DNA of 64,000 nt from Candidatus Latescibacterota bacterium (GCA_965219455.1 OZ244744.1:1280001-1344000), one strand, 5' to 3'. Positions 23,145 through 46,690 are shown, numbered from the stretch's first letter. The notes: a model not told the origin generated them from the sequence alone. Translations and numbers: made by a program.

Positions 23145-23300
23145 CACTCCCCCTTAAAGGGGGAGTCGCCTGCCTGCGTCCGCAGGACAGGCAGGCAGAA
23201 GCCAAGCCTGTCCCCTGAGCTTGCGGTCCCTGAGCCTGCCTGCATTGAGCTTATCGAAATGTCGAAGGGAACGGCGTCGGCTGATGCGGTGGGGGGATTT
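23145..23300. repeat. Nested hairpin repeats (CCTGCCTG..CAGGCAGG at 23169-23195; nested CCCTGAGC..TCGAAGGG at 23207-23269)
   Basis: Read directly from the sequence. Confidence 0.7.
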
Positions 23301-23655
23301 CAATGCCTACGGTATGCGAGCAGCCTGAAAAACATGAACGCGTTTTGCGTAGAAGTCTTAGTGTAAGACTCCAATTGGGGAGGGCATTCTTCGGTTCGCT
23401 CCTGCACTTTCCACAAAGCTCACAACAGTTGAGGTAGTTAACATCGCGTCGCTGGTCGCGCGGTCAGCATTTGACAGAATTCGCCGGCCGAGTACATCCA
23501 GCCTGCTCCACACTTTTCCCCTTGCCAAAATCACCGATTAAGGACATTTTTGTGATGTCGCTTTTGGCGAGGGATCCTCTTTCCCGGGCAGCCGTTTTGA
23601 GATTTCTGTTGAGTATACGTGCAAGCGAATTTGTTCGCGGCAAGAGAGGAGAGCT

Positions 23656-23856
23656 ATGAAACTGAACGTAGACAAGGAAGCCGACGCCCTCTACCTGCGC
23701 CTCGACGATTCTCCCATAGTCGAGTCCGAGGAGGTTTCCCCGGGAGTTGTACTCGACTACAACGCATCCAACGAAGTGGTAGGCGTGGAGATGCTCCATC
23801 TGTCGAAACGCTCATCCACTCTGAATCTCTCTACGTTGCAGTTCGAGTCGATCTGA
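23656..23856 (+). CDS. DUF2283 domain protein (antitoxin-like)
   Basis: DKEADALYLRL..ESEEV..VVLDY..VVGVE pattern; GAGGAG RBS. Confidence 0.85.
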   Translation: MKLNVDKEADALYLRLDDSPIVESEEVSPGVVLDYNASNEVVGVEMLHLSKRSSTLNLSTLQFESI

Positions 23857-24169
23857 CAGCGGTAGCTCCAAACATGCTTTTTCAATCACTAGTGGTTGCG
23901 GCTGCCAAGGAAGCGCAGGTGTCGTGATTTTGCCGCACGCCACCACAACACTGTCAACTCCCTGACTGTGTTCCCCATTGCACCCATGCGAGGGGCGCGA
24001 AAGCAGCAGGTTCCCTGACGCGCTCTCCTGCCAAGAAAACCCCTTCTGACAAAATTCCGGCATTCCAACTGCCACATCGGATGCCTATGGCAATCCGCTA
24101 ATCTGCGCCGCCGAATCATCCGCGAAACGCGTTCGTCGCACGTACTACCATGCGCTGAGGAAACTTGCT

Positions 24170-24600
24170 TGAAGGTGGGGCCTGCCTGCAGCGCCTGTCT
24201 GCGTGCGTGCACGCACAGGCAGGCAGAGCACTGCGCAGGCAGGCGGACATTCCTGTCTGCCCACGTCGATGCCGACGATGTCTCCGCGCAAATGCGTTTA
24301 CTGCGCTATTTCGTCAGGGACAATCGAGAAGACGGGAGATTCTTCGACTTCGCTCAGAATGACATGCTTTGCAATAACCATTGGCGAAACCTGTATGTAA
24401 GGTCTCGGCACAAACTGTCATCCTGAGGAAGCCCTGTCTGCCGTGCCCGGCACAGGCAGGCGTCAGGCTGACGAAGGATCTACTGCGGCATCGATCACCC
24501 CCGTGCGACTTGCACGTGTACCGACCGGAAAGGCGGCACCGTTGCCTCCTGAGCAGAACGGCAGTGGCGGGAGATTCTTCGACTCGGCTCAGAATGACAG
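24170..24600 (+). repeat. Composite repeat copy 2, carrying three inserted CCTGYCTG..CAGGCAGG hairpins, plus an extra GATTCTTCGACT..CTCAGAATGAC unit
   Basis: Alignment to copy 1 and copy 5 shows insertions at 24181-24243 (with 24194-24223 nested) and 24433-24460. Confidence 0.85.
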
Positions 24601-24658
24601 TGTAGCGCGCAGGCCATGAACGTAAGCAGAATAATACATTTCAACCAGGGGTCGTCTG

Positions 24659-26407
24659 ATGGGATTTTCACCGCGCACAATGGTTCAGCGCCCCCGCCGC
24701 GAGAGCGGGGGGAACAGGGCCCTGCTGGTACTGGTGGACAGCCGGGGCAGTTATACGAATACGAGCATCGTGGATCAGACCGTGCTCGTAGCTTTGCAGC
24801 ACTTCGGGTTTCCGTTTCGCATTCACGATCTGGCAGCCGGTCCGCTGACGCGCGACCATCTTGAGAACTGCGCCGCTGCGGTCATCGCCCAGGCCCGCCT
24901 GGGCGACGCCCTTTCGTTCGAAGAAACGGAGTTGCTGGCCTCGGGGGTTCAAGAAGCCGGGCTGGGACTGGTCAATTTCGACGGCGAACTGCGGCTGTAC
25001 AAACCGCCGCTGCTGCGTCTCTTCGGGATGGAGGTGGACCGGATTCCGATGGCCTCGGACCTGCTGCGCATCGGGGGTAACGACCATTTTATCAACTGGA
25101 CGCAGCAGGCGGGCAGTATGGTCCGGCTGAAGCGACCCGTGACCATTGCACAGATCAAGCGGGTCGGCCGGCACGTTGTGGAACTGGCGCAGGCTGCGAT
25201 GGGCAAGGACCAGCTCATCTTCTCCCGCCATAACGTGCCGGGTACGGCCTACGAGCCGGACCAGTTTCCGGCCGTGCTGGCCGGGGTCTGCGGCAGCGGC
25301 CGAGCGGTGCAGTTCGCCTGTTCCCCCCGCATCTGGCACGGGGAGTTTCTGGGCCACGCGATGGGGTTGGACGCCTTCTTCTGGCGCGCCATCGTCTGGG
25401 CGGCGCGCAAGCCGTTTGTGGCGCAAATGATGCCGCCCTACGTGACCATCCGGGTGGACGACGGCAGGGGGCGCCACGATTTCCGCTATACCGAGGTGAT
25501 GAACCGGCACGGTTACCGTCCGATGATCTCCTGCTTCCTGGACCTCGTTCCTGACGAGGTGGTGCCGTTTATGCGTGCCCGCTACACGGCCGGGCAGGTC
25601 GACTGGGACGCGCATGCTTTCGACTATTACAAGCTGATTCCGTTCGATTTCGGCATCGGAGAGTACAGCGACACGGAGTTGAAGGAAATCTTCGACCGGG
25701 TGGACCGGTGGTACGATGAACGGGGATTGAGGCCGCCGCGCCGGGCTGCGTTTCACTGGGGCGAGGTGGGCGTGCGCGTCCTGCCCTATCTGAAGGCCCG
25801 GGGACGGACGTTTGTCTATTCGACCTACCACCTGGGACAGGTGAAGTGGGAGCGGCTGTTTCCCAATTGGTGGCCCTACGGTCTCAACAGCCTGTTCTAC
25901 GACTATGTACCCGAAGACCCGGAGATGTACAACATAGGGGCCATGCTTCCCCGCCACCTCGTGGAGCCCGACGTGTTGACGGGCTGTACGACCTGGGCCG
26001 GAGACAATCCGACCAACGATATGGACAAGGCCGCGGACCGGGCGGCCGGTTCGGTCCGCCTGGCGCTGGACAGCGGGTTCTTTTCGGAGATCACCACCCA
26101 CGAGCAGAAGTTCGGCGTGCTGACCCTGGAGGAGATCGACCGGTGGCTGTCGCTGGCGTCACAAAAGACGGAACAATACGATATCCGGGGGGTGAGTCAC
26201 GACGAGGCCGCCGAGTATACCCGGGCCCGGGATGAGTCGTGGATTGCGGCCGCGTCCACGCCCGACGGCAAGGCGGCATGCCTCCGGCTGGGTGGAAAGG
26301 CGGGCGTGTCCCTGGAACTCGCCCTGTTCGAAAACGACGGGGACGGTGTGGTCCAGCGGTGGGAATCGGTCCCGGCGTTCAAGGAGGAGACCCGGGTCAA
26401 TCTCTGA
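24659..26407 (+). CDS. Hypothetical protein with a possible NodB/polysaccharide-deacetylase-like domain
   Basis: 582-aa ORF with coding-like composition. VTIRVDD, WDAHAF and TTHE resemble CE4/DUF2334-type motifs. Confidence 0.6.
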   Translation: MGFSPRTMVQRPRRESGGNRALLVLVDSRGSYTNTSIVDQTVLVALQHFGFPFRIHDLAAGPLTRDHLENCAAAVIAQARLGDALSFEETELLASGVQEAGLGLVNFDGELRLYKPPLLRLFGMEVDRIPMASDLLRIGGNDHFINWTQQAGSMVRLKRPVTIAQIKRVGRHVVELAQAAMGKDQLIFSRHNVPGTAYEPDQFPAVLAGVCGSGRAVQFACSPRIWHGEFLGHAMGLDAFFWRAIVWAARKPFVAQMMPPYVTIRVDDGRGRHDFRYTEVMNRHGYRPMISCFLDLVPDEVVPFMRARYTAGQVDWDAHAFDYYKLIPFDFGIGEYSDTELKEIFDRVDRWYDERGLRPPRRAAFHWGEVGVRVLPYLKARGRTFVYSTYHLGQVKWERLFPNWWPYGLNSLFYDYVPEDPEMYNIGAMLPRHLVEPDVLTGCTTWAGDNPTNDMDKAADRAAGSVRLALDSGFFSEITTHEQKFGVLTLEEIDRWLSLASQKTEQYDIRGVSHDEAAEYTRARDESWIAAASTPDGKAACLRLGGKAGVSLELALFENDGDGVVQRWESVPAFKEETRVNL

Positions 26408-26924
26408 TCGGAATTGAGCCGGACGGGAACGGCAGGTTGCGCTTTGAGCAGATGGAGGAGGTCCTCCGCCACCGCGCCCGGCAAGGGGCGATCTGCCAGT
26501 ACAGCGATGTAAATAGAATGAGTACGACGATGTCAACGGTCGCGATTTGCAGAAAGCGTGCGCTGCTCACGGCATGGGGCAAGCCGTGCGATACGCCGTA
26601 CCGCTTGTACCGAGTGTGACGGGTGACGCCAGAATCACGTCTCACTCTCCGGATCGTGGACATCCTACGGGATTGAGGGCATCCTGCCCTCGACTTTTCC
26701 CATCACTCCTCCCATGCGGGGAGTCGGCAATCCGGGGGCATCAGCCCACTGGCGCGCCGGTGGGTATAGATGTAGAAACCGCCAACAGCGACGACAGGAT
26801 CGCACGGTCTGGCTTCACAACGCCTGGATCCGTCCCCCTTGCAACCGCCACCGGATGTCGCGGCAGTCGCTCCTCCCTTCGAATCAATCCCGTAGAACGC
26901 GTCACGAGTACCTGATCCGAGCGG

Positions 26925-28410
26925 ATAGAGAGGTTTCCCAAGGTGATTTCCGGCGCGCGGACGTGATGTCGTGGCTGACAGGCTGTCCTATTCGCCCCGC
27001 GGGCGCCCGCGCGACCGGCATCAACCCCAGCCGGTGGGGCTCCCTGACCCGAAAGGCGGGAATCGTCCGCGGCATGGAGCAATGGCGCGACCGACTGAAT
27101 CTCTACGCGGAACGACTCAGCGAGGACGCTGCTCGACTGGCCGGCGCGGAGGAGACCACCGAAGCCCGTGCCGAACGCATGAAGTCCGAGGCAGCGGCCG
27201 CCCGGGAGGCGCTGGCCTTTATTGAAAAGCTGGCTGAGGACGTCGAGCCCCCGGTAAACCGGAGCACCTGGGGAGCATTCTGCCGTTGGGCCGATGAACT
27301 CCTGGATCGCTACCTGGACCGCGACATCCCCGACGCCGAGGTGGCTGTGTTGGAAAAGATCCGCCTCGCCCTGGAGGAGTTGGAAGCGGCCGTCAGCATC
27401 AACCCGGGAGCTACGCTGGATGAGTTTCGACAGACCGTCGAGGACTGGCTGGGAAGGACGGTCGGACACCTGGGTGTCACTGGAAGGGGCGTATTCGTAT
27501 CCCCCGTCGGTGGTGCCGCCGGCATGAGCTTCGACAGGGTATGGCTGGTGGGCATGATCGAAGGAGGAATGCCGCCTCCGGTTCGCCCCGACCCGCTGCT
27601 GCCGGAGCCGGACTGGCAGGCTGCCGGGGGCCACTCGCGCTTCGCTCAACGCGTCGCCGCCGAGCGCTGCGACTACCTGTCGGCGGTGGCCACCTCCCCC
27701 CACCGCGAACTGTCGACGACTCGGCGGAACACGCGATCATTGGCGCCGATGAAGCGTCCCTGGCCGACCGCCACGACTACAATCTGCACCGGCTCCTGCG
27801 GTGGAGACACGTTGGGCGCCGGTTGCTCGACCACCCCTTTACGCAGGACGAAACACTCTCGCGCGCAACGCGTCTGAGCCTTTGCCGGAACCAGAGTCGG
27901 CTGACGGAGTACGACGGCAATCTTTCGGCCCTCGCCGGGGAAGGTGGATTCCACCGGAAACTGCGCCGGGCGCCCGTCTCCGCCACGAGCCTGGAAAACT
28001 GGGGTACGTGCCCATTCCGCTATTTCCTCGGCCACGTACTGAGACTCGGCGCGCTCGAAACGCCGGAGGAAACAACCTCCATCACCCCCCTGGAGCGCGG
28101 TTCACTGATACACCGGATCCTGGAGCGGTTCATGAAGCAGGTCAACGGGGAGAAACTGCTGCCCGCGCCAGGGGAGGAGTGGAGCGACACGTTGCGCGAG
28201 CGGCTGTTCCGGATTGCCGGGGAGGCGTTCAGCCTGGCCGAGTCCCGTGGCGTGACCGGTAAGCCCCTCCTGTGGAAACTGGAAAAGCAGGACATCCTGA
28301 CCGACCTGGAGACCTTCATCGAAGAGGATTCGAAGCACCGGTCCTCCCACGGCACGCGCGGCGTTCTGGTCGAAGCGGGTTTCGGGTCCGGCGGCGGCGT
28401 TCCAGATGCT
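26925..28410 (+). pseudogene. Remnant of an AddB-like (PD-(D/E)XK) recombination protein
   Basis: GMSFDRVWLVGMIEG and PVSATSLENWGTCPFRYFLGHVL..ERGSLIHRILE. N-terminus absent, frame change near 27710, and nuclease catalytic C-terminus missing. Boundaries approximate. Confidence 0.7.
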
Positions 28411-30326
28411 GCCCCTGAAATGCAGCAAGGGCAGCCAGAAGAATTGGGACATCGACCCCGAAACGGGATTTAACGCATGCAAGGCTCTCAAAGGGCGCCT
28501 CAATGAGTTGCAAAACGCAACAGAGGAGGAATTGGATCTGGTCCGGCGCGCGGTCTTGAAACCGATTCTCGCGGGGCTCAGGCAGTTTGCACTGGACTAT
28601 GCCGACCAGCGTCGAAGAGAGGGCCGGGCGGAGTTCCACGATCTGCTGGTCTGGGCCCGCGACCTGCTCCGCGACAATCTCCCGGTGCGAGATCACTTGC
28701 GCGGGCGCTTCACGCACGTGCTCATCGACGAAGTCCAGGACACCGACCCCATACAGGCGGAAATCGCCATGTTCCTGTGCGAGGACGTCCCCGACGGGCA
28801 GACGGACCGTCCTCGTGCGACCACCTGGGATCAGGTGGTGCCGAAAAAGGGCAGGATATTCGTCGTAGGCGATCCCAAGCAGTCGATCTACCGCTTTCGT
28901 CGCGCCGACGTGGTCCAGATGGAACGGGTCAGGGAACGGATGGAGCATGCCGGTGGGCGAACGGTGAGCCTGTCGCAGAATTTCCGATCGCACCAAAGGC
29001 TCGTCGCGTGGGTCAATTATCTCTTTCAGCACTGGATGGGACAAGATCAGGAACAGGCCGGCATCGAGGGATATTACCAGGCCAGGTACGAGGACATGTC
29101 CCCCCGCTGGGCCGGTGAACCTCCGTCAGGCTGCGCGCCGCGGGTGTGGGCGCTTTCCGACAAGGCGGTCGATGCGGACATCGACGCGATTCGCAGGAAG
29201 GAAGCGCGAGAAATCGCCCGACTGCTTCGCCGGATGGTGGACGAAAAGTGGCAGAAGCTGGATGGAGACGCTACCAGGGCCAGCGGACGTGAGACCTTCG
29301 CATCGGTCACGTATTCCGACGTCTGCATCCTGATGCCCGGCCGAACCGGCGTTTCGATATTGGAGCGAGGACTCGAGGAGGGGAAAATCCCCTACCGTCT
29401 GGAAAGCGCGTCGCTGATTTTCGAAACCCAGGAAATCCGCGATCTGTTGAATTGCCTCAGGGCCATCGACGATCCCGGGGACCAGGTGGCTGTCGTCGCC
29501 GCGCTGCGCTCGCCGGCCTTCGGATGCAGCGACGTCGATCTGCTCAGGCACTATGAAGGCGGGGGTGGATTCGATTATCTGCAGCCGCGCGCCGGATGAG
29601 GCGCGCGACGACAGACGCCGACCCGACGCGGAACCGGTGCATACCGTTAAGGCTCGGGATGAGTGGTTGAACAAGCGTGAGGAGCTGATTGAGGAATTGG
29701 GTCGACCTGCATCGGTAGCCGCGACCTCACTTGGTAGTGGATTGCGGGAGGAAAAGGGCGAATCGGAGAGTCCCGAGCCGTGGCGGCGGGGGCGCGCCGG
29801 AACGTCGGTGGGTCGAGCCGTCCACGCCGTGCTGCAGTCGATCGACCCGGCTACCGGCGAGGACATCGATGACCGCGCACGGGCGCAGGCCGCCGCCGAG
29901 GGCATACCGGGCCGAAAAGATGAAATCGCCCGACTGTCTCGCGTTGCGATAGACAGCGCCATCGTCAAGCGGGCCGTAGCTTCCGGCCGGTATTGGCGAG
30001 AGGTGCCCGTGGCCGTTGCGATCGGCGACGGATCCCTTCACGGTTTCATCGACCTGTTGTTCGAAGAGCACGGCGATCTGGTCGTGATTGATTTCAAGAC
30101 CGATTCCGTCAGCGCGGCCGAGGTTGCCGGCCCACTCAAGGACAACTATCGCCTGCAGGGCGGCGCCTACGCCCACGCCATCCGCCACGTAACCGGCAAG
30201 GTTGTCAGGGAAGTGGGGTTCGTCTACCTCCAACCCCGATGCGAGGTGAGGTTGGAAGACCTGCGCCAGGCCATGCGGCATGCGGAAGCAGAAGCCCAAA
30301 AGTCCCTGAACCCCGCGGGAAAGTAG
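28411..30326 (+). pseudogene. Remnant of an AddA-like UvrD helicase-nuclease
   Basis: LIDEVQDT, VGDPKQSIYRFRRAD, LSQNFRS, then a RecB-type nuclease (REVP..GFIDLL..IDFKT..Q..AY) in another frame. Walker A and late helicase motifs are absent. Confidence 0.75.
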
Positions 30327-30498
30327 AACCGCCTGAAGATGCGTCTCTTGTGGGCGAACGCGGCCATAATGGAATGGGGGTCAGCCGACAGAGCACGTGG
30401 CCGGGAGTTGCGCGGCGCCCACAGATATAAGAAAATTTGTGACAATACAAGAAATCTTGTATACGACTGTTTGTGACCATTTCGTCCATGAGACGGCT

Positions 30499-30696
30499 AG
30501 TGTTCTGTCCCAGAAATAGGTTGCCTAAATTCGGCCGTCGAGTCGCCCGCCTCGCAAGGCGCCAGAGCGCAGGCGACCTGCGTAAGTTCGGCGAGCGAAG
30601 GCAACGCCGCGAGACCTGCCTGTCGCGCGTTGCTTGGCGCAGGCAGGCGGGATGAATCGGCGGCAGAATGGTTAGATATTTTTGAGACAGGACACT
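30499..30696. mobile_element. MITE-like element, copy 2, flanked CTAG..CTAG and carrying a 33-bp hairpin insertion (30615-30647)
   Basis: TIRs AGTGTTCTGTC / GACAGGACACT; aligns to 2146-2309. Confidence 0.85.
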
Positions 30697-32541
30697 AGCA
30701 CCTACGCACCAATCTTCCAAGTGTTTTTGCCTTTTCATTCGTGTCTATCGGTGTTCATCGGTAGTTGCATTTGCCTTTCCCCCAGCCCCCGCTCAAGATG
30801 ACGCTGTTTTACCGAAATCGTTGACAAATATCAGAAAATCGCCAAACCCAATCTCGCCATTGCCATTCAGATCATACCGAGCGTCATACCTCGCATCGCC
30901 CCGGCTTAATCCGAATTGATCTACAAATCCCAAAAAATCGGCAAAGTCAACCGTACCACTGCCATCAAAGTCTGCGGGAAGAGCGGGTTTGTCAAACAGG
31001 ACCGCAACACCTCTCTTTTCCAGGTCTGGAATATATGTGTTGATGGCTGCTGAACTCAGCGGGTTGTCCTCGAGATTCAATGTGGTCAGGTTGGTTGCAA
31101 ATTCAAGCCCGATCAAATCGCGGATCTCTCGGTTCCTCAGGTCAAGTGTGGTCAAGCGTTCCACCTCAGCCCTGGTCAGAGGTCCGTAGCCGGATTTGCC
31201 CAAGGCTTCCCGAACGGCCGCTTTGAGGTTGAAGTCGGCCATATGTACTACGGGTGTGACATAAGGCGACAGGTTCCACAAGACGATGGTGTAATCCCCC
31301 TCTCTTTCATAACCGCCGCCTATTGACGTGGCGAAAGTTGTGCCATCGGGGGAAAATGCTGTACAAGCACCAAGCAGTCCAGCGTTAGTGTTGCCCTGAA
31401 ATCTCGCGATTCTTTCGTATGTATTTGCATCCCGAAGATCAATATCCCCACCCTGTGACGCGGTGATAATTTTTTCGCCATCAAGGGTAAATGACGCATA
31501 ACGGAGAAGATTATTCACCCTTACTATAAATTGATCCTTAAAGGCTCTTTTATCCACGTCCCAAAAAGCGACTTTGTTATTAAAAGCACCTGAAACGAGT
31601 GTTTTACCATCCGGTGAGAATGACACAGAAGTGACCGCGTTCTCATAGGGAAGGTTGGCAATCTCGGTCTTTGTCGCCACGTCCCATAGCCTGATCGTGC
31701 TATCAAAAGCACCCGAAGCGAGAGTCTTTCCATCCGGTGAAAATGCCACGCTCTGGACACCATGTGTATGGCCTATAAGAGGGGGGAGTTGGGTTTTTGT
31801 GGACATGTCCCATAGCCTGATTATGTTTGGGCCGCTCCCTTCGGCATCCGTTATTCCTGCGGCGAGGATTTTTCCATCGGGCGAAAAGGCCACACCTTTG
31901 GCGCTATTCCCCTTCTGTCTGTCCAGGGGGATGATGAGTTTGTGGGTCGAATTATGCAGCATCGAAAGGCCTATTTTGCGGATATTGCCGCGCGTATCCA
32001 CCGTCTCGAACGTCATCTTATGTACAAGAATAGTGGAGAGATTCGTAGCACCGGGATCCGATGGAATAATGCCGTCATACCGGAGGTCAACAGTCGCATT
32101 CGTCGCACCCCCTAATAGACGACCTGTCTTCAATTCGGGAGCGCCTGCGGAAAAGTGCGTTTCCGGTGTTGTGACAAATAGAGAGACCTGCTGAAGACCG
32201 TCAGGGTCGCTGAGTTCCAGTTGGATAGGGACGCTTGTTGCACCTGTCCGATATGAACGCGACGAAAGGATCTGGCACGTTGGCAAATCCAGCACATATT
32301 CCTGATACGTTGAACTATCGGAATTGAAATGGGGGTGTACGGCCAAATGCCCGGCGCTGAACTCGGATAACCTGGTTCGTCCACGACCATAAGACATGAT
32401 GTAGGCATCATTGTTGAAATTGTGCCACAATCCGAAAGCGTGTCCCAGTTCGTGGGCTGCTCTGGCAACGAAATTCGGGTCGATATATTGCCTCAACATC
32501 GCCCATCCACTATTTCTTGACGTTTGCAAACCAAGCCCTAA

Positions 32542-37898: not shown

Positions 37899-37924
37899 AG
37901 GGCAACCACAAGGGTTGCCCGTAC
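37899..37924 (-). repeat. GTAG-type REP palindrome
   Basis: Reverse-complement variant of 585-610 and 41955-41979; another variant at 49398-49422. Confidence 0.75.
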
Positions 37925-38014
37925 AACGGGTGTGGTTTGGATAGAGAAACCAAAACAGGCTGGCTTCGGGAGTACTGGCACAAACGATCCGAATTCGCGA
38001 TGGCCCCGCCGGTT

Positions 38015-40177
38015 TCACTCGGCTGGCGCCACTGAGTCTCCCGTCCCCGCCCGGATGCGTTGGGGCAGCGAGGTGTACCGGTCGGCCACGCGGTTGTTCT
38101 TGATGGCGATCGCCAGGGCTTTCCGCGTACCGACGATGACGACCAGGTCCCGGGCTCTTGTCACGGCCGTGTAGAGCAGATTTCGCTGGAGCATCATATA
38201 ATGCTGGGTGGTCAGCGGCAGTACGACCACGGGATACTCCGACCCCTGGCTCTTGTGCACGCTGGTGGCGTAGGCAGGCACGATCTCATCCAGTTCGGTG
38301 AATTCGTACCCCACGGTCCGCTCCGGGTACCGCACCGCCAGGGCCTGGTTCGTCGAATCGATCCCCGCGACCCGTCCGATATCCCCGTTGAACACGTCCC
38401 TGTCGTAATTGTTGCGCACCTGCATCACCTTGTCCCCCACCCGGAACCGCACGCCGCCGCGCTGCAGTTCCTGCCCGTTCGGATTGAGCCGCTCCTGGAG
38501 CACCCGGTTCAGGTTCGTCGCGCCGGTCTCGCCTCGATACATCGGCGCCATCACCTGAATATCGTCAATCGCATCCACGCCGTAGGCGCGAGGGAGCCGG
38601 TCCTTGCAAAGCCCGCAGACCGTCTCCGCCACCTCCTCCGGATCCTCCACCTGCGAGAAAAAGAAATCCGAACCCCGGCTGTTATCCAATTCCGGAAGTT
38701 CGCCGGCCAGGATCCGGTGTGCGTTCATCACAATCCGGCTTTCCCGCGCCTGCCGGAAAATCTCGGTCAGCGCCACGACAGCCGCCTCCCCGGAGCCGAT
38801 GATATCCTTCAATACATTCCCCGGCCCCACCGAAGGCAGCTGGTCCACGTCCCCCACCAGAACCACCGTAGCGCTCAGCGGTACCGCCTGCAGGAGACTG
38901 TTCATCAATGCCACGTCCACCATCGAGACTTCGTCCACGATGATCGCATCGCACGTCAGAGGGTTATCGAAGTTCATATCGAATTTCAACTCGCCCGGGC
39001 TGAACTTGAGCAGCCTGTGGATGGTTTTGGCGTCCCGCCCCGTGGCTTCCGCCATCCGTTTTGCCGCCCGTCCGGTGGGCGCAGCCAGCAACACGCCTTT
39101 GTCCCGCGCCTCGAAGAGGGCGATCAAGCCCCTGATGGTCGTGGTCTTGCCAGTCCCGGGGCCACCGGTAAGCACGAGCAGGCTGTGGGAAAGGGCCTTC
39201 TCCAGCGCAACCTTCTGCAGAGAGGCGAACCGGATCCCGTCGCGTTTCTCGATCGCCGCGATCTCCGCATCGATATTGCGCGTTTCAACGCGCCGGATGC
39301 TGGAGAACTGATGCACCCGCGTCGCCACGCCCTTTTCGGCATAGTAAAGAGATGGAATGTAGATCCGGTCCTCCTCGACAACCACCTCCTCGGTTTCGCG
39401 TAGCAGGTCGATACACGGGGCGATCAATTCGTGCGACACTTCAAGCGTCTCCGCGCACCGGTCCATCAACTCCATCACCGGCAGATAGACGTGCCCGTCG
39501 GACTGCGCCGCGGTCTCCAGCACATAGCGGATACCCGCGAGGACCCGTTGCTCCGAGTGGGGTTCCACGCCCAGTTTCTGAGCGATCCGGTCGGCGGTGG
39601 CGAAACCGATACCCCAGACGTCGCGGGACAGGCGGTACGGATTCTCCTGAATCAGTGAAACCGAGTCCTGCCCGTATTGCTTCCAGATCTTCACGGCGTG
39701 CCCCGTGCCCACGTCGTGCGACTGCAGAAACAGCATCACGTTGTGGATCTCGCGCTGCTCCTTCCAGGCATCCTCGATCATCCTGGCGCGCTTTCTGCCC
39801 AGCCCCTCCACCTCCACCAGCCGCTTCGAGGCCTTCTCGATCACTTCCAGCGTTTTCTTGCCGAAATGATCCACGATTCGTCCGGCCATCACCGGTCCGA
39901 TACCTTTGATCAGCCCCGAGCCCAGGTACTTTCGCATTCCATGCACGGTGGATGGATATACCTTTTCGTATGACTCGATCTTGAACTGGCGGCCGTACCG
40001 GGCGTGGTCCGTCCATTCGCCGTCCAGGGCCACGCACTCCCCCGCGGTCAGCGAAAGCGTTGTGCCCACAACGGTGACCTCCTCACCCGAACCTTCGGGT
40101 TGCAGCTTGGCAACCGTATAGCCGCTTTCTTCACTCTGAAACGTAATCCGCTCCACAATGCCCTGAAGCCGCTCCAT
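38015..40177 (-). CDS. recD2: ATP-dependent RecD-like DNA helicase RecD2
   Basis: YLGSGLIKGIG, NPYRL, GGPGTGKTT, APTGRAAKR, VDEVSM, GDVDQLPSVG, HKSQGSE, YTAVTRA. Confidence 0.96.
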   Translation of the reverse strand: MERLQGIVERITFQSEESGYTVAKLQPEGSGEEVTVVGTTLSLTAGECVALDGEWTDHARYGRQFKIESYEKVYPSTVHGMRKYLGSGLIKGIGPVMAGRIVDHFGKKTLEVIEKASKRLVEVEGLGRKRARMIEDAWKEQREIHNVMLFLQSHDVGTGHAVKIWKQYGQDSVSLIQENPYRLSRDVWGIGFATADRIAQKLGVEPHSEQRVLAGIRYVLETAAQSDGHVYLPVMELMDRCAETLEVSHELIAPCIDLLRETEEVVVEEDRIYIPSLYYAEKGVATRVHQFSSIRRVETRNIDAEIAAIEKRDGIRFASLQKVALEKALSHSLLVLTGGPGTGKTTTIRGLIALFEARDKGVLLAAPTGRAAKRMAEATGRDAKTIHRLLKFSPGELKFDMNFDNPLTCDAIIVDEVSMVDVALMNSLLQAVPLSATVVLVGDVDQLPSVGPGNVLKDIIGSGEAAVVALTEIFRQARESRIVMNAHRILAGELPELDNSRGSDFFFSQVEDPEEVAETVCGLCKDRLPRAYGVDAIDDIQVMAPMYRGETGATNLNRVLQERLNPNGQELQRGGVRFRVGDKVMQVRNNYDRDVFNGDIGRVAGIDSTNQALAVRYPERTVGYEFTELDEIVPAYATSVHKSQGSEYPVVVLPLTTQHYMMLQRNLLYTAVTRARDLVVIVGTRKALAIAIKNNRVADRYTSLPQRIRAGTGDSVAPAE

Positions 40178-40254
40178 GGATCCTTCCTCTGAATCTGTCT
40201 GCGTGCGCGGATTGATCGCCGAAAAAACCGGCGCATCGCACCGTCACCGGAATC

Positions 40255-41418
40255 TCACGCCTTGTACACGACCTCACCCCGGACGATCGTCGCCACGATG
40301 GATAGCGCGGGCTGTCCCTCCGCCCAGCGGAACAGCGTCAGGCTCGCGTCCATTCCGGGCGCCACGCGGCCCAGCCTGCCGTCAACGCCCAGCAGCCGCG
40401 CCGGGTTGATGGTTGCCGTCTCCAACGCCTCGGCCAGCGTGGCGTCGGTATAGGCGACCGTATTCGGAATCCCGTAATCCAGAAACAGCGACGCCCCAGC
40501 CAGGTACGGCGTGCCCGCCAGGGAGATCTTCCCGTTCTCGTGTATCTCCACCTCGTCGCTTCCATAGCTCCGGCCGTAAATGCCGGGCGGCAGCCCGGCA
40601 ATGGACGACACGTCGCTGACCAGGCAGATCCGCTCTTTCTGCTTGGTCCTGTAGAAACTCTTCAACACAGGCGGCGGAAGATGGTGACCGTCCGGGATGA
40701 TCCCCGCCCAGAGTTCGTCGGCGGCAAGCTGCTCCCAGATATAGTTATCGTGGCGGGGAATCTCCGCGTGCGCTCCGTTGCCCAGGTGGGTGGACATCCG
40801 CGCGCCGGCCGCCACCGCCTCCCGGATCCGGGCCCGGCTGGCCCCGGTATGCCCCAGGGCGACGATGACGCCCGCGTCCGATGCCTTCTCGATAAAGGCC
40901 AGGGATCCCTTCCGTTCCGGCGCAAGGGTCAGAATCCTGATCCGGCCGCCGGCCGCCTCCTGGTAACGGCAGAACTCATCCCAGTCGGGATCCCGCGTGT
41001 GCACCAGGGGATGCGCCCCTCTGGGACCGTCCTCGGATGCGATATAGGGCCCCTCAACGTGAAAACCCACAAACGACGCATTTGCGGTATCCGACTGCTC
41101 GCATGCCATGGCCAGCGCCCGCAAACCCGAAATCGCCTGTTCCGCAGGGGACGTCGTTACCGTGGGACAGAAAAGCGCCGTACCCGCCCTGTACGGCCAT
41201 TCACTGGCCTGCAGCACCCGCTCCACCGTCAGATCCCCGGAACTGTAGTTGATCCCGCCGGCCCCGTTGACCTGAACGTCGAATAATCCCGGCGAAATCC
41301 ACACGTCATCGCCCCCCAACGCCGGCGCGCCGTCGTCTTCGATGCTTGCGATTCGACCGTCTTCTATCGTTACCGACACGGGCGCTTCCGTACCCACAAT
41401 TTTACCCCGAAGAACCAT
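40255..41418 (-). CDS. nagA: N-acetylglucosamine-6-phosphate deacetylase family amidohydrolase
   Basis: PGLFDVQVNG, HVEGPY, GAH, TLAPE, LGHT, THLGNG, DGHH, VSD, LAG. Confidence 0.88.
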   Translation of the reverse strand: MVLRGKIVGTEAPVSVTIEDGRIASIEDDGAPALGGDDVWISPGLFDVQVNGAGGINYSSGDLTVERVLQASEWPYRAGTALFCPTVTTSPAEQAISGLRALAMACEQSDTANASFVGFHVEGPYIASEDGPRGAHPLVHTRDPDWDEFCRYQEAAGGRIRILTLAPERKGSLAFIEKASDAGVIVALGHTGASRARIREAVAAGARMSTHLGNGAHAEIPRHDNYIWEQLAADELWAGIIPDGHHLPPPVLKSFYRTKQKERICLVSDVSSIAGLPPGIYGRSYGSDEVEIHENGKISLAGTPYLAGASLFLDYGIPNTVAYTDATLAEALETATINPARLLGVDGRLGRVAPGMDASLTLFRWAEGQPALSIVATIVRGEVVYKA

Positions 41419-41559
41419 TGTTTCTCCTTTGCATGTACTGTCCTGTTTCCGAAATATTCAGCCGCCGGTTCAACCTCCCTCGCTACGTTGTTTACGTTGC
41501 GCTTGTCGGAACGGCCTGTCGAAACCAGTTCGCGATTCGGCGTCCATGAGACTGAATAT

Positions 41560-42105
41560 CCCCCACCCTTTAACGTCCCCTATTTCCTTGCCCTTTTTCT
41601 TGCATCGCCCAAGAAAAAGGGCGAAAAAGAAGGGCGCCGCTCGGCGCGGAGCCGGTTTTTCCGTGAATCGCTTCAGTGGTACAAATGGGAATTGGGTGCC
41701 CTACAAGCCCTCCCGGAACTCCCGGCTTACGGAGATGTACGGAATGACACGGAAAAACCCCCAACTCCACCTCCGGACGGTCGTGTGTATTCCTGGCAAG
41801 GATCCCCGTCTGGATTTGCGTTTGTACCGCTCTTGGCTGACTGCTCTTCTTAGTTTCTTCGTGTCTCTGCGTGAGCCCGGTTTTCCTGGCTTTCCTCCCC
41901 CTTTCCTTTAGGAGAGGGGGCCGGGGGGAGAGGTCTCGCGCCGCGTTTGAGATTGTAGGGGCAACCCTTGTGGTTGCCCGCATTTCGGCGCTGAAGTCAA
42001 TCGCTTTGGATTTTGATTCAAGCTGATGGCTGACAGCCAATGGCTGGTTCTCGGTGTGGACCTCTCCCGTCTACCGTCTTCCCGCTTTCCACGTTCCGCT
42101 TCCAA
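41560..42105. repeat. Cluster of palindromic and short tandem repeat modules in the nagA/IMPase intergenic region
   Basis: Shares three modules with 494-668; 7-mer arrays at 42021-42105. Confidence 0.7.
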
Positions 42106-42148
42106 CTAACGATAACACCCGGCCAACCGATCCGCAATATGTTTTGTC

Positions 42149-42177
42149 TTGACATCACCGAGGGAATTTGGTATACT
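42149..42177 (+). promoter_or_regulatory. Near-consensus sigma70-type promoter with extended -10
   Basis: TTGACA-N17-TATACT, with TGG immediately before the -10. Confidence 0.8.
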
Positions 42178-42265
42178 CAATATTTGTTCGATCCTGCCTT
42201 TGTATGAGTCATATTAGTCCCGGAAAAACACAAAGTTAACTCACTTTACGTGGAAGGAATCACGA

Positions 42266-43213
42266 ATGGGTGACGATCAGGTTTTCGAAAACAGAATCGG
42301 TAACTTCAGTAGGACCGATAATGTAGACGACCTCACGGCGCTCGGCCTGGCGATCGTGGCGGAAACCCTGGATATTCTGCACGACTTGCAGGGCAAGGCC
42401 AGCGGCGCCATGGTCATCCGCACCCGCGAGGGCGATTACAAGAATTGGGACGCCGAGATCTTCGGTGTGGACGAAGCAGCTGAAGGGGCATACATTGGAA
42501 GGCTGAAGGAAAGCCCGCATCCGGTTGTGCTGCTTTCCGAAGAAGCCGGCATGGTCGATCTCACCGCCGGCAAAGAGGGAGACAAACTCTATGGCGTCTC
42601 CGATCCCTTCGACGGCAGCTGGTTGTACAAGAGGGGGCTGCCGTTCATGCAATACAGTTCCCTGGCGCTCTTCGACGCCAACTTCAATCCTCTTGTTTCC
42701 GTCACCGGCGACGTTTTCAACAAAGACCTGGCGTTTGCCAATGGTACCGGCGCCTATATGGCCAGGCTGGACGGAAACGGCTTAACCGGCGTGGAGATGC
42801 TGGATGAAAGCTATCGCAGGCAACGGCACGGGGAGGCGGCCTCCGGCATCAATGACGCCTGTGTCGAATCGTACCTCCTGAAACCGGCCAAATTCCTCAT
42901 GCCACTCATCGATGAATACAGGCCGGTCATCGATGCATTCAAAATGCTCCACCCCAACGGCGGCCCGTACGCATTCGCCGAGGCCGCGGCAGGGCAGATC
43001 GACGTCTACTTTGCCAGGCAGCAGCCCTACGTCGACGTCTTCTCCGGTATCCAGATCGCGGAACAGGCCGGCCTGGTTGTTACCGATTTCGACGGTAACG
43101 ACGTGCCGAAGCCCACTGAAGATTACGAGACCGTCTTCGACGTCCTGGTCAGCCGGACGCAGACCCTGCACGACCAAACCCTCGAGAAAATCTCGGAATG
43201 CAGAAAGGAATAA
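42266..43213 (+). CDS. Inositol monophosphatase/FBPase (FIG) superfamily phosphatase, divergent
   Basis: LSEEAG, SDPFDGS, VDVFSG..AEQAG..TDFDG. Confidence 0.8.
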   Translation: MGDDQVFENRIGNFSRTDNVDDLTALGLAIVAETLDILHDLQGKASGAMVIRTREGDYKNWDAEIFGVDEAAEGAYIGRLKESPHPVVLLSEEAGMVDLTAGKEGDKLYGVSDPFDGSWLYKRGLPFMQYSSLALFDANFNPLVSVTGDVFNKDLAFANGTGAYMARLDGNGLTGVEMLDESYRRQRHGEAASGINDACVESYLLKPAKFLMPLIDEYRPVIDAFKMLHPNGGPYAFAEAAAGQIDVYFARQQPYVDVFSGIQIAEQAGLVVTDFDGNDVPKPTEDYETVFDVLVSRTQTLHDQTLEKISECRKE

Positions 43214-43216
43214 CTG

Positions 43217-44188
43217 ATGGCCCATAACGGAACTGGCACGAAGGACGATCCGGTCATCGTTACCGAACTGGCGGGGGAAGATGTTCCCGGCGAGTTGAGA
43301 CCTTCCAACTTCTTCGACCTCGACAGATATCCGTTCGAGCACCGCGCGCTGGTGGACGGGGCAAGGTCGGTCGTGGATCTCATCGGCAAAGACGGAATCG
43401 AAAAATACGCAAGGGAATGGCTGGCCGAAAAAATCGGTTCGGCGGAAGGCGTGGAAGAACGGACCGGCCTCACCGGAATCGGGAACTACACCGTGCTGGT
43501 CGAACCCGGCGCCGTATGCGAACCTCTCTTCGTGCACGGATCGCTCGATGGCGGGGGCCACACGCTCTACGTCGCAAGAAACGCAAAGGTGGTGGGTGCG
43601 GTCGTCTACCTCGACAGTGGGGACATCTACGTCGGTTCCGGAGCCGTTATCGAGCCCACGGCCGGCGTGAAGGGCCCGGCCATCATCGGCCCGAATAACG
43701 AAATCCGTCAGGGCGCTTATCTCCGGGGCAACACCATCCTGGGCGGTCACAGGAAACAGGGTGACAACGCCATCCGGGGCGAACTCAAAAACGTTCTGTT
43801 GCTAAACGAAGCCAATTTCCCCCATCCCTCGTATCTCGGCGACAGCCTCTGCGGGTACGCCACCCACTTCGGCAACCAGGCCACGGCCGCGAACCTGGGC
43901 ATCATCCAGGGCGTTCGTGAACGGGACAAGCGCGTCAACCTGAAGGTCGAAATCAACGACAAATGGTACGACCTCGGCGGATCCAAAATGGGCGTGGTTC
44001 TCGGCGACAGAACCCAACTGGCCTGCGGATCCCTCACGGATCCAGGCACCCTGCTGGGGCCGACGTGCATCTCCTACGGCCTTGCGTACGTCAAAGCCGG
44101 CTACTATCCCGCCGGCACCATGTTCAAAACCCGGTCCGAGAGGGTCGTCGAGACGCAGAAAGGCATCTTCGATCCGGACAAGCTCTAG
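43217..44188 (+). CDS. Left-handed beta-helix (GlmU C-terminal-like) acyltransferase
   Basis: Hexapeptide repeats, GPAIIG..IRQGAYLRG, ELKN, PHPSYLGDS, ATAAN, KMGVVLGD. Confidence 0.8.
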   Translation: MAHNGTGTKDDPVIVTELAGEDVPGELRPSNFFDLDRYPFEHRALVDGARSVVDLIGKDGIEKYAREWLAEKIGSAEGVEERTGLTGIGNYTVLVEPGAVCEPLFVHGSLDGGGHTLYVARNAKVVGAVVYLDSGDIYVGSGAVIEPTAGVKGPAIIGPNNEIRQGAYLRGNTILGGHRKQGDNAIRGELKNVLLLNEANFPHPSYLGDSLCGYATHFGNQATAANLGIIQGVRERDKRVNLKVEINDKWYDLGGSKMGVVLGDRTQLACGSLTDPGTLLGPTCISYGLAYVKAGYYPAGTMFKTRSERVVETQKGIFDPDKL

Positions 44189-44233
44189 TATGCTGTCCCG
44201 GAAACAGGTTGCCTAAATTCGGGACAGCACACT
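44187..44233. mobile_element. Internally deleted 47-bp copy of the MITE
   Basis: AGTATGCTGTCCCGGAAACAGGTTGCCTAAATTCGGGACAGCACACT; overlaps the TAG stop of the upstream gene. Confidence 0.7.
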
Positions 44234-44425
44234 GGAAGACGTCCCGGCGAGGTCCGGCGGCGTCTTCCCATTCCAGAACAAGAACGACAACGCATTTCGA
44301 ATCCATCGGAAGCGTTGTCGTTTTCTCTTTTCGTCCGTCAACGTCCGCGGCGCGTCGGGATGTGTCCCAGAAGGCGGCCGAGAGAGGCCGCTTCCCGATC
44401 TCCGCGATTCCGGAAGGACAACTGG

Positions 44426-46009
44426 ATGATTGGCCAGAAAAACACGCATGAATGGATCCGGGCGATTCGCGGCCGGGACAACGATCTGATCTCCCGCCTT
44501 CAGTCCATCTACGGCAACAGCGAGAGCCTTCTTGAAGAACGTCTGAACGCCCTGTCGGAAACGGCGACCCGATTCGGGGAAGCCTACGGCGACAGGGGCA
44601 TCAGTTTTGTCAGGTCGCCGGGAAGATTGAACACCGTGGGCATGCACGCCGACCACCGGGGGGCCTTTATCAACCCCATCTCCCTGGACAAAGAGATCCT
44701 CATCTGTTTTTCCCGCAGAGACGACGACCGGGTTGAAGTCCACAATTTGGACCCGGCCTATGGAACCCGGCGTTTCCATTTGTCGGAAACGTACCCGGAC
44801 GCGCCGATCCGTTCTGACGCCGAGTGGCTGGACTGGACGCAGGAAAAAACCGACGAACGCAAGGCGGCGGGCGTAAACGAGGACTGGATTACAAAACTGC
44901 AGGCCCCGCCGGCCTACCTGCACACCCGCTATCCCGATAAACAGCTCATGGGCTTCGACGGGGTCCTGGGAAGCAGCATTCCCGACCAGGGCGGCTTGAG
45001 CTCCTCGTCTGCGGTTGTGGTTGCGTTGATCGAAATCATGACACACGTCAACGACATCGATCTGGACGACGGGCAGTTCGTAAGGTATGCGGGCACCGCG
45101 GAATGGTACGTGGGGACCCGGGGCGGCTTCGGCGACCACGCCGCGATCAAGTGCGGCCAACTGGGAAAAATCACCCACATGAAGACCCTGCCCGAGTTGA
45201 TGATCGACGCCTATCTTCCGTTCCCGGACGGTTATCAGATCGTCATCTTCGACTCGGGTGTCCAGGCCAACAAAACCGGAGCCGCCGGGCAGAAATTCAA
45301 TGAAAAGACGGCAACCTACGAGATTGGAGAGGTCTATCTCAGAAACCACCTGGAAGCACACCACCCGGACGTCATCCGACGGGTGGTGGAGGCCAGAAAA
45401 GATCTGGAAATCGAAAAAAAGTTCCACCTCGCCGACGTGGTCGAGTGCCTGGACCAGTCTCAGATTTATGAATTGATCGGGGGCCTGCCTGAACAGATTG
45501 ACCGCCGGGGGCTGCTGCGCCAGTTGCCTGAACAGAAGCGATTTCTTGAACAGCAATTCGCGACCCACGATGAACCTGCAAACGGCTACCAGGTCCGCAT
45601 GGTCATCACGTACGGGATCGCCGAGTCCGAACGCAGCAGAAATCTGAAGGACGTGTTGAACCGGAACCGGGTGGACCTCTACGGCCAGCTGATGAATGTC
45701 TCCCACGACGGCGACCGAGTGCACCTGGACGCGCCCCGATTCGACCCGGGAAAAGACCTCCACCTCCAGCCGGGCGACTACAATTGCAGCATCCCGCAGA
45801 TCGATGAAATGGTCGACGTCGCCCTGGATGCCGGCGCCGAGGGCGCGCAAGTATCCGGCGCCGGCCTGGGCGGAAGTATGATGGTCCTGGTCAAATCAGA
45901 CGGCGTGCAGGGTATCATCGAAGCCATGCGCGATAGGTACTACACCCTCCGCGGGATCGAGGAACGACTGACGGTTGCGTCTCCCGTTCAGGGCGCCGGG
46001 GTTTTGTAG
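44426..46009 (+). CDS. Galactokinase-like GHMP sugar kinase, divergent
   Basis: SPGRLNTVGMHADH, IPDQGGLSSSSA, GGFGDH, FDSG, GAQVSGAGLGG. Start at ATG 44426 (RBS AAGGA). Confidence 0.82.
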   Translation: MIGQKNTHEWIRAIRGRDNDLISRLQSIYGNSESLLEERLNALSETATRFGEAYGDRGISFVRSPGRLNTVGMHADHRGAFINPISLDKEILICFSRRDDDRVEVHNLDPAYGTRRFHLSETYPDAPIRSDAEWLDWTQEKTDERKAAGVNEDWITKLQAPPAYLHTRYPDKQLMGFDGVLGSSIPDQGGLSSSSAVVVALIEIMTHVNDIDLDDGQFVRYAGTAEWYVGTRGGFGDHAAIKCGQLGKITHMKTLPELMIDAYLPFPDGYQIVIFDSGVQANKTGAAGQKFNEKTATYEIGEVYLRNHLEAHHPDVIRRVVEARKDLEIEKKFHLADVVECLDQSQIYELIGGLPEQIDRRGLLRQLPEQKRFLEQQFATHDEPANGYQVRMVITYGIAESERSRNLKDVLNRNRVDLYGQLMNVSHDGDRVHLDAPRFDPGKDLHLQPGDYNCSIPQIDEMVDVALDAGAEGAQVSGAGLGGSMMVLVKSDGVQGIIEAMRDRYYTLRGIEERLTVASPVQGAGVL

Positions 46010-46054
46010 GGAGTACCGCGTGCCATCGGCATGTCGAGACGTTGAGGAGGCGCG

Positions 46055-46690
46055 TGTGAAGGTGGGGTAGACATTCCTGTCTGCCCTTCTCATTGTCCGC
46101 CTGCCGCCTGAAGAGGGATGGCAACCTCTCCCCCGGCCCCTCCCCGACGCGGGGAGGGGAGCAGTGCCTCACGTGCCGCCTGGCAGGCCGCGCGAGTGAC
46201 GGACGCTCAGGTCTCATTCGACGCTGCAGTAGATCCTTCGTCAGCCTGGCGCCTGCCTGTGCCGGGCACGGCAGACAGGGCTTCCTCAGGATGACAGTTT
46301 GTGCCGAGACCTGACAGACAGGTTTCGCGGATGCTGATTGCAAAGCATGTCATTCTGAGCGAAGTCGAAGAATCTCCCGTCTTCACGCTTGTCCTTAACG
46401 CCAAACACGCGGTAAACACATTTGCGCGGAGACGTCGTCGGCATCGAAGCGGGCAGACAGGAATGTCCGCCCCACCTTCAAAAACGTTCCGTCCTCAGGA
46501 TGACAGGTTGTGCCAAGACCTGACGGACAGGTTTCGCCAATGGTTATTGCAAAGCATGTCATTCTGAGCGAAGTCGAAGAATCTCCCGTCTACTCGATTG
46601 GCCTTAACGCCAAAAACGCGGTAAACACATTTGCGCGGAGACATCGTTGGCATCGGGGCAGGCAGGCCCCACCTTCAGACTTGTCTCCTC
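46055..46690. repeat. Repeat block: REP-like units, a 112-bp module, and composite repeat copies 3 and 4
   Basis: 46128-46239 is identical to 49053-49164; hairpin insertion at 46252-46279. Confidence 0.85.

Follow-up and report, generated by a model that had tools for sequence, protein, structure and literature searches.

A 64,000-nucleotide stretch of a Candidatus Latescibacterota bacterium genome (G000:C1:1280001-1344000, hereafter the window; G000 is the window's own genome and G001 onward are relatives) was found to carry CCTG(T/C)CTG...CAGGCAGG hairpins, which probably form a family of tiny mobile DNA elements devoid of genes, mostly 27, 28, 30, 33 or 36 nt in length. The complete element was either present or missing with single-base precision, with no duplication and no footprint, and the insertion point was typically located between a purine (usually G) and a C. 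The elements were found in other repeats, in one another and, as whole codons, in bacterial and phage protein genes. It is very likely that the hairpins are mobile insertions, and they look to be among the smallest mobile elements known.

A search of the window for the exact pattern CCTGYCTG-N8-22-CAGRCAGG revealed six hairpins (starting at 23169, 24194, 24433, 30615, 46252 and 48824), against a chance mean of 0.01, and none of 100 shuffles gave six. The total rises to seven when the 33-nt outer copy at 24181-24243, split by the 30-nt copy at 24194, is added. The host sites include a transposable element of the miniature inverted-repeat type (MITE) and a repeat family designated H1 (Table 1). 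Five of the exact copies, those at 23169-23195, 24194-24223, 24433-24460, 30615-30647 and 46252-46279, had been listed in the first-pass annotation of the window and all of them were recovered as exact matches, together with one more at 48824-48850. In the search of the window against Rfam nothing was detected at the gathering score, and around the hairpins there were only chance-level matches (E >= 0.1).

Table 1. Hairpins, hairpin remnants and empty sites located in the window
Feature	Position	Strand	Context and counterparts
27-nt hairpin, perfect C-G arms	23169..23195		Host is a repeated element; 11 paralogous empty sites exactly at gagtcg|cagaagcc
Outer 33-nt hairpin	24181..24243 (parts 24181-24193 and 24224-24243)		At GGGG|CGG of MITE end; interrupted by the inner copy
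Inner 30-nt hairpin	24194..24223	+	Its + strand has T facing G; sits at CAGCG|CAG within the outer copy
28-nt hairpin	24433..24460	+	Long loop of GTCATCCTGAGGAAGC...GAAGGATC host repeat; 4 exact-junction empty paralogues including window 49176/49177
33-nt hairpin	30615..30647		GAGA|CGGG of host repeat family H1; 58 exact-junction empty paralogues
28-nt hairpin	46252..46279	-	Inside 422-bp MITE 46058-46479; 5 exact-junction empty paralogues
27-nt hairpin in frame in a protein gene	48824..48850	-	Encodes LSVRGTQAG; absent from the first-pass annotation
Solo hairpin arm GCAGGCAGG adjoining MITE end	46658..46666		Junction GCAGGCAGG|CCCCACCTTC; sequence and alignment
Empty H1 target site GCGAGA|CGGGATGAATCG	2255..2272	+	Counterpart of filled 30614/30648
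Empty MITE end GAAGGTGGGG|CGGCCATTCCTGTCTGCC	22823..22850	+	Search and alignment
Further empty MITE ends	23062-23089, 46058-46085, 46452-46479(-), 49349-49376(-)		Search and alignment
Empty site cctgacg|gcttcct	49170..49183	+	Counterpart of filled 46252 and, reverse-complemented, of filled 24433

Three pairs of filled and empty sites that had been proposed from the window alone were borne out, with zero bases gained by duplication and zero lost at every pair. The GAGA|CGGG site, filled at 30614/30648, was aligned with the window copy at 2140-2330, in which it is empty, and the two differed by a 33-nt indel. The GGGG|CGG site, filled at 24180, was found empty at 22823, 23062, 46452(-) and 49349(-); in the alignment with the MITE ends at 22823, 23062 and 49349 the filled copy stood out by a single 63-nt indel, made up of the 33-nt hairpin and the 30-nt hairpin nested in it, as the annotation had also claimed. 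The GAAGC|CG site was filled at 24432 and 46252 and empty at the junction 49176/49177, the copy at 46252 being of the same subfamily and at the same host site as that at 24433, with the genome orientation reversed. The outer copy of the nested pair was present without the inner one at G000:2427016, three empty outer copies with the exact junction of the inner copy were identified in the genome search, and the same nested site was occupied by 27-, 30- and 33-nt variants at the loci L118, L087 and L049. The solo arm at 46658-46666 was probably left behind by a deletion that ran from a hairpin arm to the CCTGTCTGCC motif within the MITE end.

In the whole genome, assembled as one contig of 5,844,228 bases with 58.3% G+C, 86 exact copies were detected, whereas three control arrangements of the same arms gave 2, 1 and 3. 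The copies spanned 22-38 nt, with 11 copies of 27 nt, 15 of 28 nt, 7 of 30 nt, 26 of 33 nt, 16 of 36 nt and 11 of other lengths, and the length was divisible by three in 60 of them. All counts rest on exact arms because a relaxed census was too noisy, one mismatch per arm giving 293 matches versus 136-150 in controls. The pairing of the arms was asymmetric and thus marks one strand: T faced G in 60 copies, 26 copies had C-G and none had T-A. In the predicted folds, a 2-nt bulge lay between the basal and the upper stem, and a loop closed the hairpin. The arms were conserved and the inner sequence varied, as noted before, and the inner part was resolved into discrete subfamilies, each with a stem, a 2-nt bulge, a stem and a loop.

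Empty sites were sought by joining the two 40-base flanks of each non-overlapping copy and comparing them with the genome by BLAST. For 55 of 82 copies at least one paralogous site was identified that was exactly flank plus flank, whereas the seven controls, in which the junction was displaced by 1 or 2 bases or had C, G or CG added, matched at 2 sites in all. Among the 39 host-site classes of the genome copies, 27 had G at -1, 6 had A, 5 had C and 1 had T, and 28 had C at +1. The suggestion that every copy abuts a CG held for all seven copies in the window and for 27 of the 39 classes (the genomic frequency of the CG dinucleotide being 0.10), and a purine at -1 with C at +1 was the better rule. 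The junction is ambiguous by one base because the element begins with C and the downstream flank usually begins with C; at most copies the ambiguity, or direct repeat, was 1-2 nt (C or CC). One host site, gggatgaatcgg|cggatgaatggt, was occupied by at least three different hairpins, one identical 36-mer was found in at least three different flank contexts, and at one host site 5 filled copies stood against up to 58 empty ones.

The first-pass annotation had further supposed that the element prefers other hairpin repeats as targets. This was not upheld, as the junction lay in a hairpin loop in 3 of 39 classes versus 3.9% at control G|C sites (p = 0.20), and the cases of a hairpin within a hairpin, namely the nested copies, the loop of a repetitive extragenic palindrome (REP) and the loops resembling Ssn-related motifs, are anecdotal. 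At G000:5611125, 3340353 and 3696725, hairpins were observed that are bordered on the left by one host repeat and on the right by a different one. Such hybrid flanks are expected if hairpin copies act as recombination or deletion points between repeats, which they suggest.

Whether the filled or the empty state came first was judged at four protein genes. In a tetratricopeptide repeat (TPR) gene of 1253 residues, G000 carried a 33-nt hairpin with a further 36-nt copy nested in its loop, the nested copy, at G000:2406434-2406469, being present in G000 alone. An intact 33-nt hairpin was found in G013, a 36-nt version in G012 and diverged remains in G009 and G001, while orthologues without the insert were found in seven genomes of the same genus, cleanly, and in four of other genera, three of these in a neighbouring family. 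In hsdS, a 30-nt copy encoding SLPADAAAQA in the conserved central region was common to G000 and G013 only. Among 12 other homologue rows, seven had an exact 10-residue gap, three an 8-residue gap in diverged sequence, one had unrelated residues and one, from G013, had the insert.

The third gene encodes a WD40 protein with a metalloprotease-like domain, for which the Pfam search gave WD40 and weak metallopeptidase matches, and the copy at 48824-48850 lies near its N-terminus. The peptide LSVRGTQAG was missing in all 18 homologues (13 from relatives and 5 paralogues), and 14 of them had a gap of exactly 9 residues. In the fourth, a phage terminase large-subunit gene, an exact 9-residue insertion was present in L184 and L199 and not in L207. 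Judged by these comparisons of sequence, hairpin insertion is the derived state at all four genes; the hairpins there are read as gains and not losses because homologues or outgroups lack the whole-codon insertions of 9-12 residues. Together with the exact-junction empty sites, these derived insertions sustain the earlier view of very small non-autonomous insertions without target duplication. The remark that the lengths would preserve reading frames was also correct, as multiples of three let copies sit in frame within genes.

The WD40 gene (46729-48975, minus strand) belongs to a large paralogous family of secreted-looking proteins, with a conserved N-terminal domain containing a HELGH metalloprotease-like motif and with C-terminal WD40 repeats. 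An N-terminal query gave 12 matches in G000 and up to 18 in relatives.

It is extremely unlikely that the hairpins belonged to the host repeats and genes from the start, without being mobile, and were repeatedly lost by replication slippage or shuffled among repeats by gene conversion. Palindromes are deletion-prone, a 1-2 nt direct repeat lies beside most copies, losses would be compatible with the tree of the host repeat, and the hybrid flank combinations suggest recombination at hairpins. However, loss is already contradicted at the four genes, by TPR outgroup orthologues without the insert and likewise by the homologues of the other three. The filled copies are in the minority at host sites, as in the case of 5 versus up to 58, at least three different hairpins share one site, and copies occur in unrelated unique contexts of many phyla and phages.

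The distribution of the family was examined in 41 relatives, of which 32 had a hairpin match. The number of copies per genome was 0-231, compared with 0-2 for a reversed-pattern control, and the dominant hairpin subtype differed from genome to genome. Within the genus the counts ran from 0 in G008 and 1 in G014 to 136 in G007, 208 in G001 and 223 in G009.

A pattern of 20 fixed bases, CCTGTCTGC-N6-20-GCACAGGCAGG, was detected in at least 119 stretches of a species-genome collection (genome_contigs). The matches listed came from Lentisphaeria, Thermodesulfobacteriota, Desulfobacteraceae, Brocadia/Kuenenia, Zetaproteobacteria, Verrucomicrobiota, Methylomirabilis, Latescibacterota, Nitrospirota, Nitrospinota, Acidobacteriota, Anaerolineales, WOR-3, Spirochaeta, Binatia, Campylobacterota, Thermotogae and Syntrophomonadaceae. 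Chance would give about 16 matches if all bases were equally frequent, and a larger number in GC-rich genomes, so that a count of at least 119 is little proof by itself. In the 27-mers, positions 10-13, which were free in the search pattern, were GTGC in 84-91% of 56 copies, with the loop varying, and the cross-phylum family is therefore real despite the chance expectation. Among the 123 cross-phylum copies in the matches listed, C was found at +1 in 101 and a purine at -1 in 102; at loci below 50% G+C, C was at +1 in 43 of 56 copies. The flanks of the cross-phylum loci were unrelated, and nested copies were present too, among the matches listed. Four distant records held 2, 5, 1 and 1 copies and one Latescibacterota record held 223. 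Host repeats were common to G000 and to records titled Latescibacterota (L049, L076, L087 and L091).

The same pattern was present in 46 viral-contig stretches, some of them with several copies, on contigs encoding terminase, capsid, helicase and AAA_24 proteins. The length was a multiple of three in 143 of 177 cross-phylum and viral copies (25 of 29 in long open frames and 118 of 148 elsewhere). In L034, L039, L060 and L068, from Thermodesulfobacteriota and a Pseudomonadota metagenome-assembled genome, the CCTG hairpin was located within GTCATTCC...GGAATC hairpins with the look of Ssn-related motifs. The Brocadiaceae loci L047, L064 and L123 represent one locus of related genomes with the common downstream flank cataaataaaatgaaaat, at which the hairpins were 27 or 30 nt long and their loops differed.

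A functional origin of this abundance, with the hairpins selected as protein-binding sites, terminators or RNA stabilisers, is highly improbable as the explanation, and would be compatible with mobility. The stems are strongly conserved and the loop is free, the sequence is conserved across phyla, and such roles have been credited to REPs (PMC3733652). On the other side, copies are located within coding regions and other repeats in both orientations, their number varies from 0 to 231 among congeners, and a function leaves the arrival at new sites unexplained.

It is very unlikely that the hairpins are captured filler, for which break repair, unaided by a dedicated enzyme, copied a self-priming palindrome from elsewhere through 1-2 nt of microhomology. 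A palindrome that folds back on itself can act as a primer, the junctions mostly show a 1-2 nt ambiguity (C or CC), and the upper stems appear to lengthen symmetrically through 27, 30, 33 and 36 nt. The ends are nevertheless the identical CCTG...CAGG whatever the source context, unlike microhomology-templated filler, and one sequence is kept across phyla; it already looks largely true that the same two bases terminate every copy, whatever sequence adjoins the candidate donor sites.

Under the mobile-element reading, the moving unit would be one strand folded as a hairpin, in which a basal stem of 8-9 bp includes an invariant T.G pair and is followed by a 2-nt bulge, 3-7 bp of upper stem and a free loop. 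An enzyme acting in trans, specific for both sequence and structure, would recognise this fold, cut at the foot of the stem and join the hairpin into a nicked or single-stranded target, by chemistry that may be akin to that of IS200/IS605 or of REPs and REP-associated tyrosine transposases (RAYTs), not necessarily with the same enzyme. Phages and other transferred DNA would bring copies from lineage to lineage, and the stop-free arms and the lengths divisible by three would let copies survive within genes. Such single-strand hairpin transposition by a trans-acting site-specific enzyme is possible and is proposed tentatively. A more far-reaching version is doubtful: a pan-bacterial, phage-borne mobile hairpin of 27-36 nt, the smallest transposable unit common to phyla, moved by an undescribed structure-specific class of enzymes or by near-universal bacterial machinery and adding whole codons throughout its spread.

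Several results, on the history of the copies as well as from the search for a gene that could move them, weigh against the mobile-element reading. The phylogeny of repeat copies, which the first-pass annotation had named as the test that could overturn it, was built for H1 from 89 extracted loci, many of them partial. The tree was star-like, with the 14 filled copies of 89 scattered over it, and required 13 changes versus 13.3 for shuffled labels; therefore it says nothing on the order of the filled and empty states. With four runs, which consisted of short contigs with the cover piled on repeats, allelic filled/empty polymorphism could not be demonstrated; an exact 33-nt skip from 30614 to 30648 (X1, X5 and X6; side of 24 nt) probably comes from paralogous empty copies. 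Many copies may have multiplied passively along with the host MITEs.

No mobilising gene was found in the genome, near the cross-phylum loci or in the viral stretches. The at least 119 cross-phylum loci had no recurrent neighbour beyond response regulators, ABC ATPases, kinases and secretion genes, and the 46 viral stretches had none beyond ordinary phage genes. With the origin and terminus placed by GC skew only, no replication-strand bias of the T.G strand was observed (leading 25 versus lagging 32, p = 0.43), and the coding-strand bias of in-frame copies was not significant (19 versus 10, p = 0.14). A conserved target word of 4-5 nt of the IS200/IS605 kind was absent, the only biased positions being the purine at -1 and the C at +1.

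Y1_Tnp matches in the genome numbered only two. The first was a free-standing open reading frame (ORF) of 244 residues in L002 (G000:C1:1921448-1924669), scoring as a RAYT; the RAYT-like sequences of the genome matched NF047646 at 97.7 and 89.2 bits. This ORF lies between several copies of a palindrome of its own, GAGGGCAGGATGCCCTC, and not between CCTG hairpins. About ten cores of the palindrome were found in the genome, and the copy at G000:1010926 had a CCTG hairpin in its loop. The second match (G000:1912863-1913093, minus strand) was located in L001 (G000:C1:1911363-1914593), inside an antiphage-type ORF with DUF1156. Moreover, G007 had 136 hairpins and no Y1 match.

The palindrome around the L002 ORF is 24 nt long and of the GGACCGAGGGCATCCTGCCCTCGA type, and the stretch encoding the first 120 residues of the ORF passes through repeats of this kind. 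The long ORF of L001 matched DUF1156 antiphage-associated and D12 methyltransferase models, and long ORFs (1203-1441 aa) with the same Y1 segment were found in G009, G011 and G016.

The first-pass annotation had linked the hairpins to HUH/Y1 single-strand transposition, and that link was not sustained. It is unlikely that a Y1 HUH transposase (a RAYT or an IS200/IS605 TnpA) uses the hairpins as REP-like substrates, excising them as single-stranded DNA and inserting them beside a short target motif. Such an origin would fit the precise insertion without target duplication, the asymmetric bulge and fixed mismatch of the hairpin and the RAYT-like sequences in the genome. Within the genus, a Y1 match was present in 5 of 6 genomes with at least 65 hairpins versus 3 of 9 with at most 21, a comparison of related genomes that is not an independent test. 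However, the palindrome of the RAYT-like gene is a different one, and one of its copies is interrupted by a CCTG hairpin. The numbers of Y1 matches and hairpins do not clearly correspond either: besides G007, G024 had 104 hairpins with only broken or partial Y1 matches, while G017 had 32 Y1 matches and 2 hairpins and G038 had 75 and 1. No GTAG/CGTC tag and no conserved tetranucleotide in the flanks was found, and the leading/lagging bias was absent.

A GIY-YIG nuclease of the Ssn/YhbQ kind was considered as the mover and rejected, as its presence does not follow hairpin counts across relatives. The gene, L224 (G000:C1:2416004-2416276, minus strand), encodes 91 residues and is surrounded by GTCATTCTGAGCG...GAAGAATC repeats instead of CCTG hairpins. 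In the high-copy G009, G011 and G015 the L224 query gave no Ssn-like match, a finding to be set with those above; in G009 a single match at the E-value limit lay inside a 629-aa frame. The low-copy G010, G025 and G035 carry an Ssn-like gene. The repeats around L224 are of the GTCATTCTGAGCGGAGCGAAGAATC type, a motif that was also observed in window MITEs, e.g., at 22922-22953, 24333-24364 and 24568-24599.

The gene islands that lie between neighbouring hairpins contained nothing beyond a group II intron reverse transcriptase, a fragment of a DUF772 transposase, toxin-antitoxin genes and the DUF2283 ORF of the window. The last, of 66 residues (23656-23856), stands alone between clusters of MITE ends and hairpins. 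Mobile elements abound in the region L149 (G000:C1:3597000-3612000), where several hairpins accompany a group II intron reverse transcriptase/maturase, a fragment of a DUF772 transposase and genes of the SocA/Panacea and Fic-like kinds. The host MITE has 28-bp inverted ends, GAAGGTGGGGCGGACATTCCTGTCTGCC, the inner part of which is a hairpin arm, and occurs in the window at 46058-46479 and at 66 sites genome-wide. No autonomous partner of this MITE, with the 28-bp end containing CCTGTCTGCC, was found in the genome, where paired ends lay just 167-422 bp apart.

Spread through an RNA copy, in which the transcribed hairpin is reverse-transcribed or spliced into new sites, is distinctly unlikely, if less so than capture as filler. 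A route of this kind was reportedly proposed for cyanobacterial small dispersed repeats. In RNA, the invariant T facing G would form a G.U wobble, on one strand only, the genome encodes a group II intron reverse transcriptase, and 19 of 29 in-gene copies lean to the sense strand. This lean is not significant (p = 0.14), single-stranded DNA tolerates G.T as well, and no poly-A tail, target-primed duplication or link to a reverse transcriptase was found at the hairpins.

Taken as a whole, the mobile-element reading is well supported and the attribution to HUH chemistry is an open guess. If the reading is true, the hairpins are a natural system well suited to asking how mobile elements of the smallest size move, with exact filled and empty sites, nested copies, dated gene insertions and a 27-nt substrate that is simple to synthesise. 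The distribution across phyla and phages would call for either a widely transferred enzyme with very specific recognition of the hairpin or a route that needs no dedicated enzyme. Such an enzyme, if it exists, could be a potential tool for single-stranded DNA, like the Ssn nucleases. The hairpins would be a steady source of short peptide insertions in proteins, and a hazard in practice when metagenome-assembled genomes are assembled, masked for repeats and searched for genes.

Literature searches with the hairpin strings gave primer-type matches only, among the 20 of 53 papers listed, and concept searches returned work on REPs, REPINs, SDRs, RPEs, MITEs and Ssn but no description of the family, which supplements may list. 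Among the closest known systems, REPs and REPINs are similar in being short (20-40 nt), GC-rich imperfect palindromes with many dispersed copies, as are the 86 CCTG copies of 22-38 nt. REP families are usually lineage-specific, whereas the CCTG hairpin sequence was found in many phyla and phages. The CCTG copies are mostly single and not doublets, and the RAYT-like gene of the genome is flanked by another REP. According to PMC3733652 and PMC3116915, REPs are thought to move as single-stranded DNA hairpins without target duplication, and are sometimes intragenic or inside palindromes. They carry an unpaired GTAG or CGTC tetranucleotide at one end, as described in PMC3733652; the CCTG hairpins lack this tag and have the ends CCTG...CAGG.

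The CCTG hairpins resemble the palindrome-associated IS200/IS605 elements and the DDE-type MITEs in being non-autonomous, hairpin-forming and dispersed, and share with the former the insertion without target duplication, for which the exact flank-plus-flank empty sites of 55 of 82 copies speak. They differ from IS200/IS605 elements in consisting of a single hairpin instead of two distinct ends, with no target word of 4-5 nt and no strand bias, and from DDE-type MITEs in the lack of a target duplication; no transposase recurs near them and no parent element was found. A precedent for hairpin repeats shared across phyla is given by the Ssn-related motifs (NTS/dRS3-like hairpins), which go with Ssn GIY-YIG single-strand nucleases, as presented in PMC11893778. 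The CCTG hairpin is unrelated in sequence to their CGTCATTCCCGCG...GGGAATC or CGTCATTCCC...GGGAATC type, and the Ssn-like gene of the genome is flanked by other repeats and is present irrespective of hairpin counts. CCTG hairpins were, in turn, found inserted in the loops of Ssn-motif-like repeats at window 24433, L034 and L068.

Compared with the small dispersed repeats (SDRs) of Nostocaceae, the CCTG family is 27-36 nt long, has another sequence and occurs in many phyla. SDRs are 21-27 nt long. They were reportedly described by Elhai et al. in 2008 as very small mobile repeats with a common hairpin-like fold, and are said to insert into short words, mini-transposons and copies of themselves. 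To our knowledge, the mover of the SDRs is likewise not known. According to PMC5861425, no SDR had been found outside Nostocaceae.

The position in frame within genes is shared by the CCTG hairpins and the Rickettsia palindromic elements (RPEs). RPEs are roughly 100-150 bp long and restricted to Rickettsia, whereas the CCTG elements are 3-5 times shorter and untagged. RPEs are described in PMC3733652 as palindromic, CGTC-tagged selfish repeats located in frame in functional protein genes. The CCTG hairpins thus behave like REPs, SDRs and RPEs, but differ from them in the defining features that were tested, namely the tag, the cognate RAYT, the size and the taxon range.

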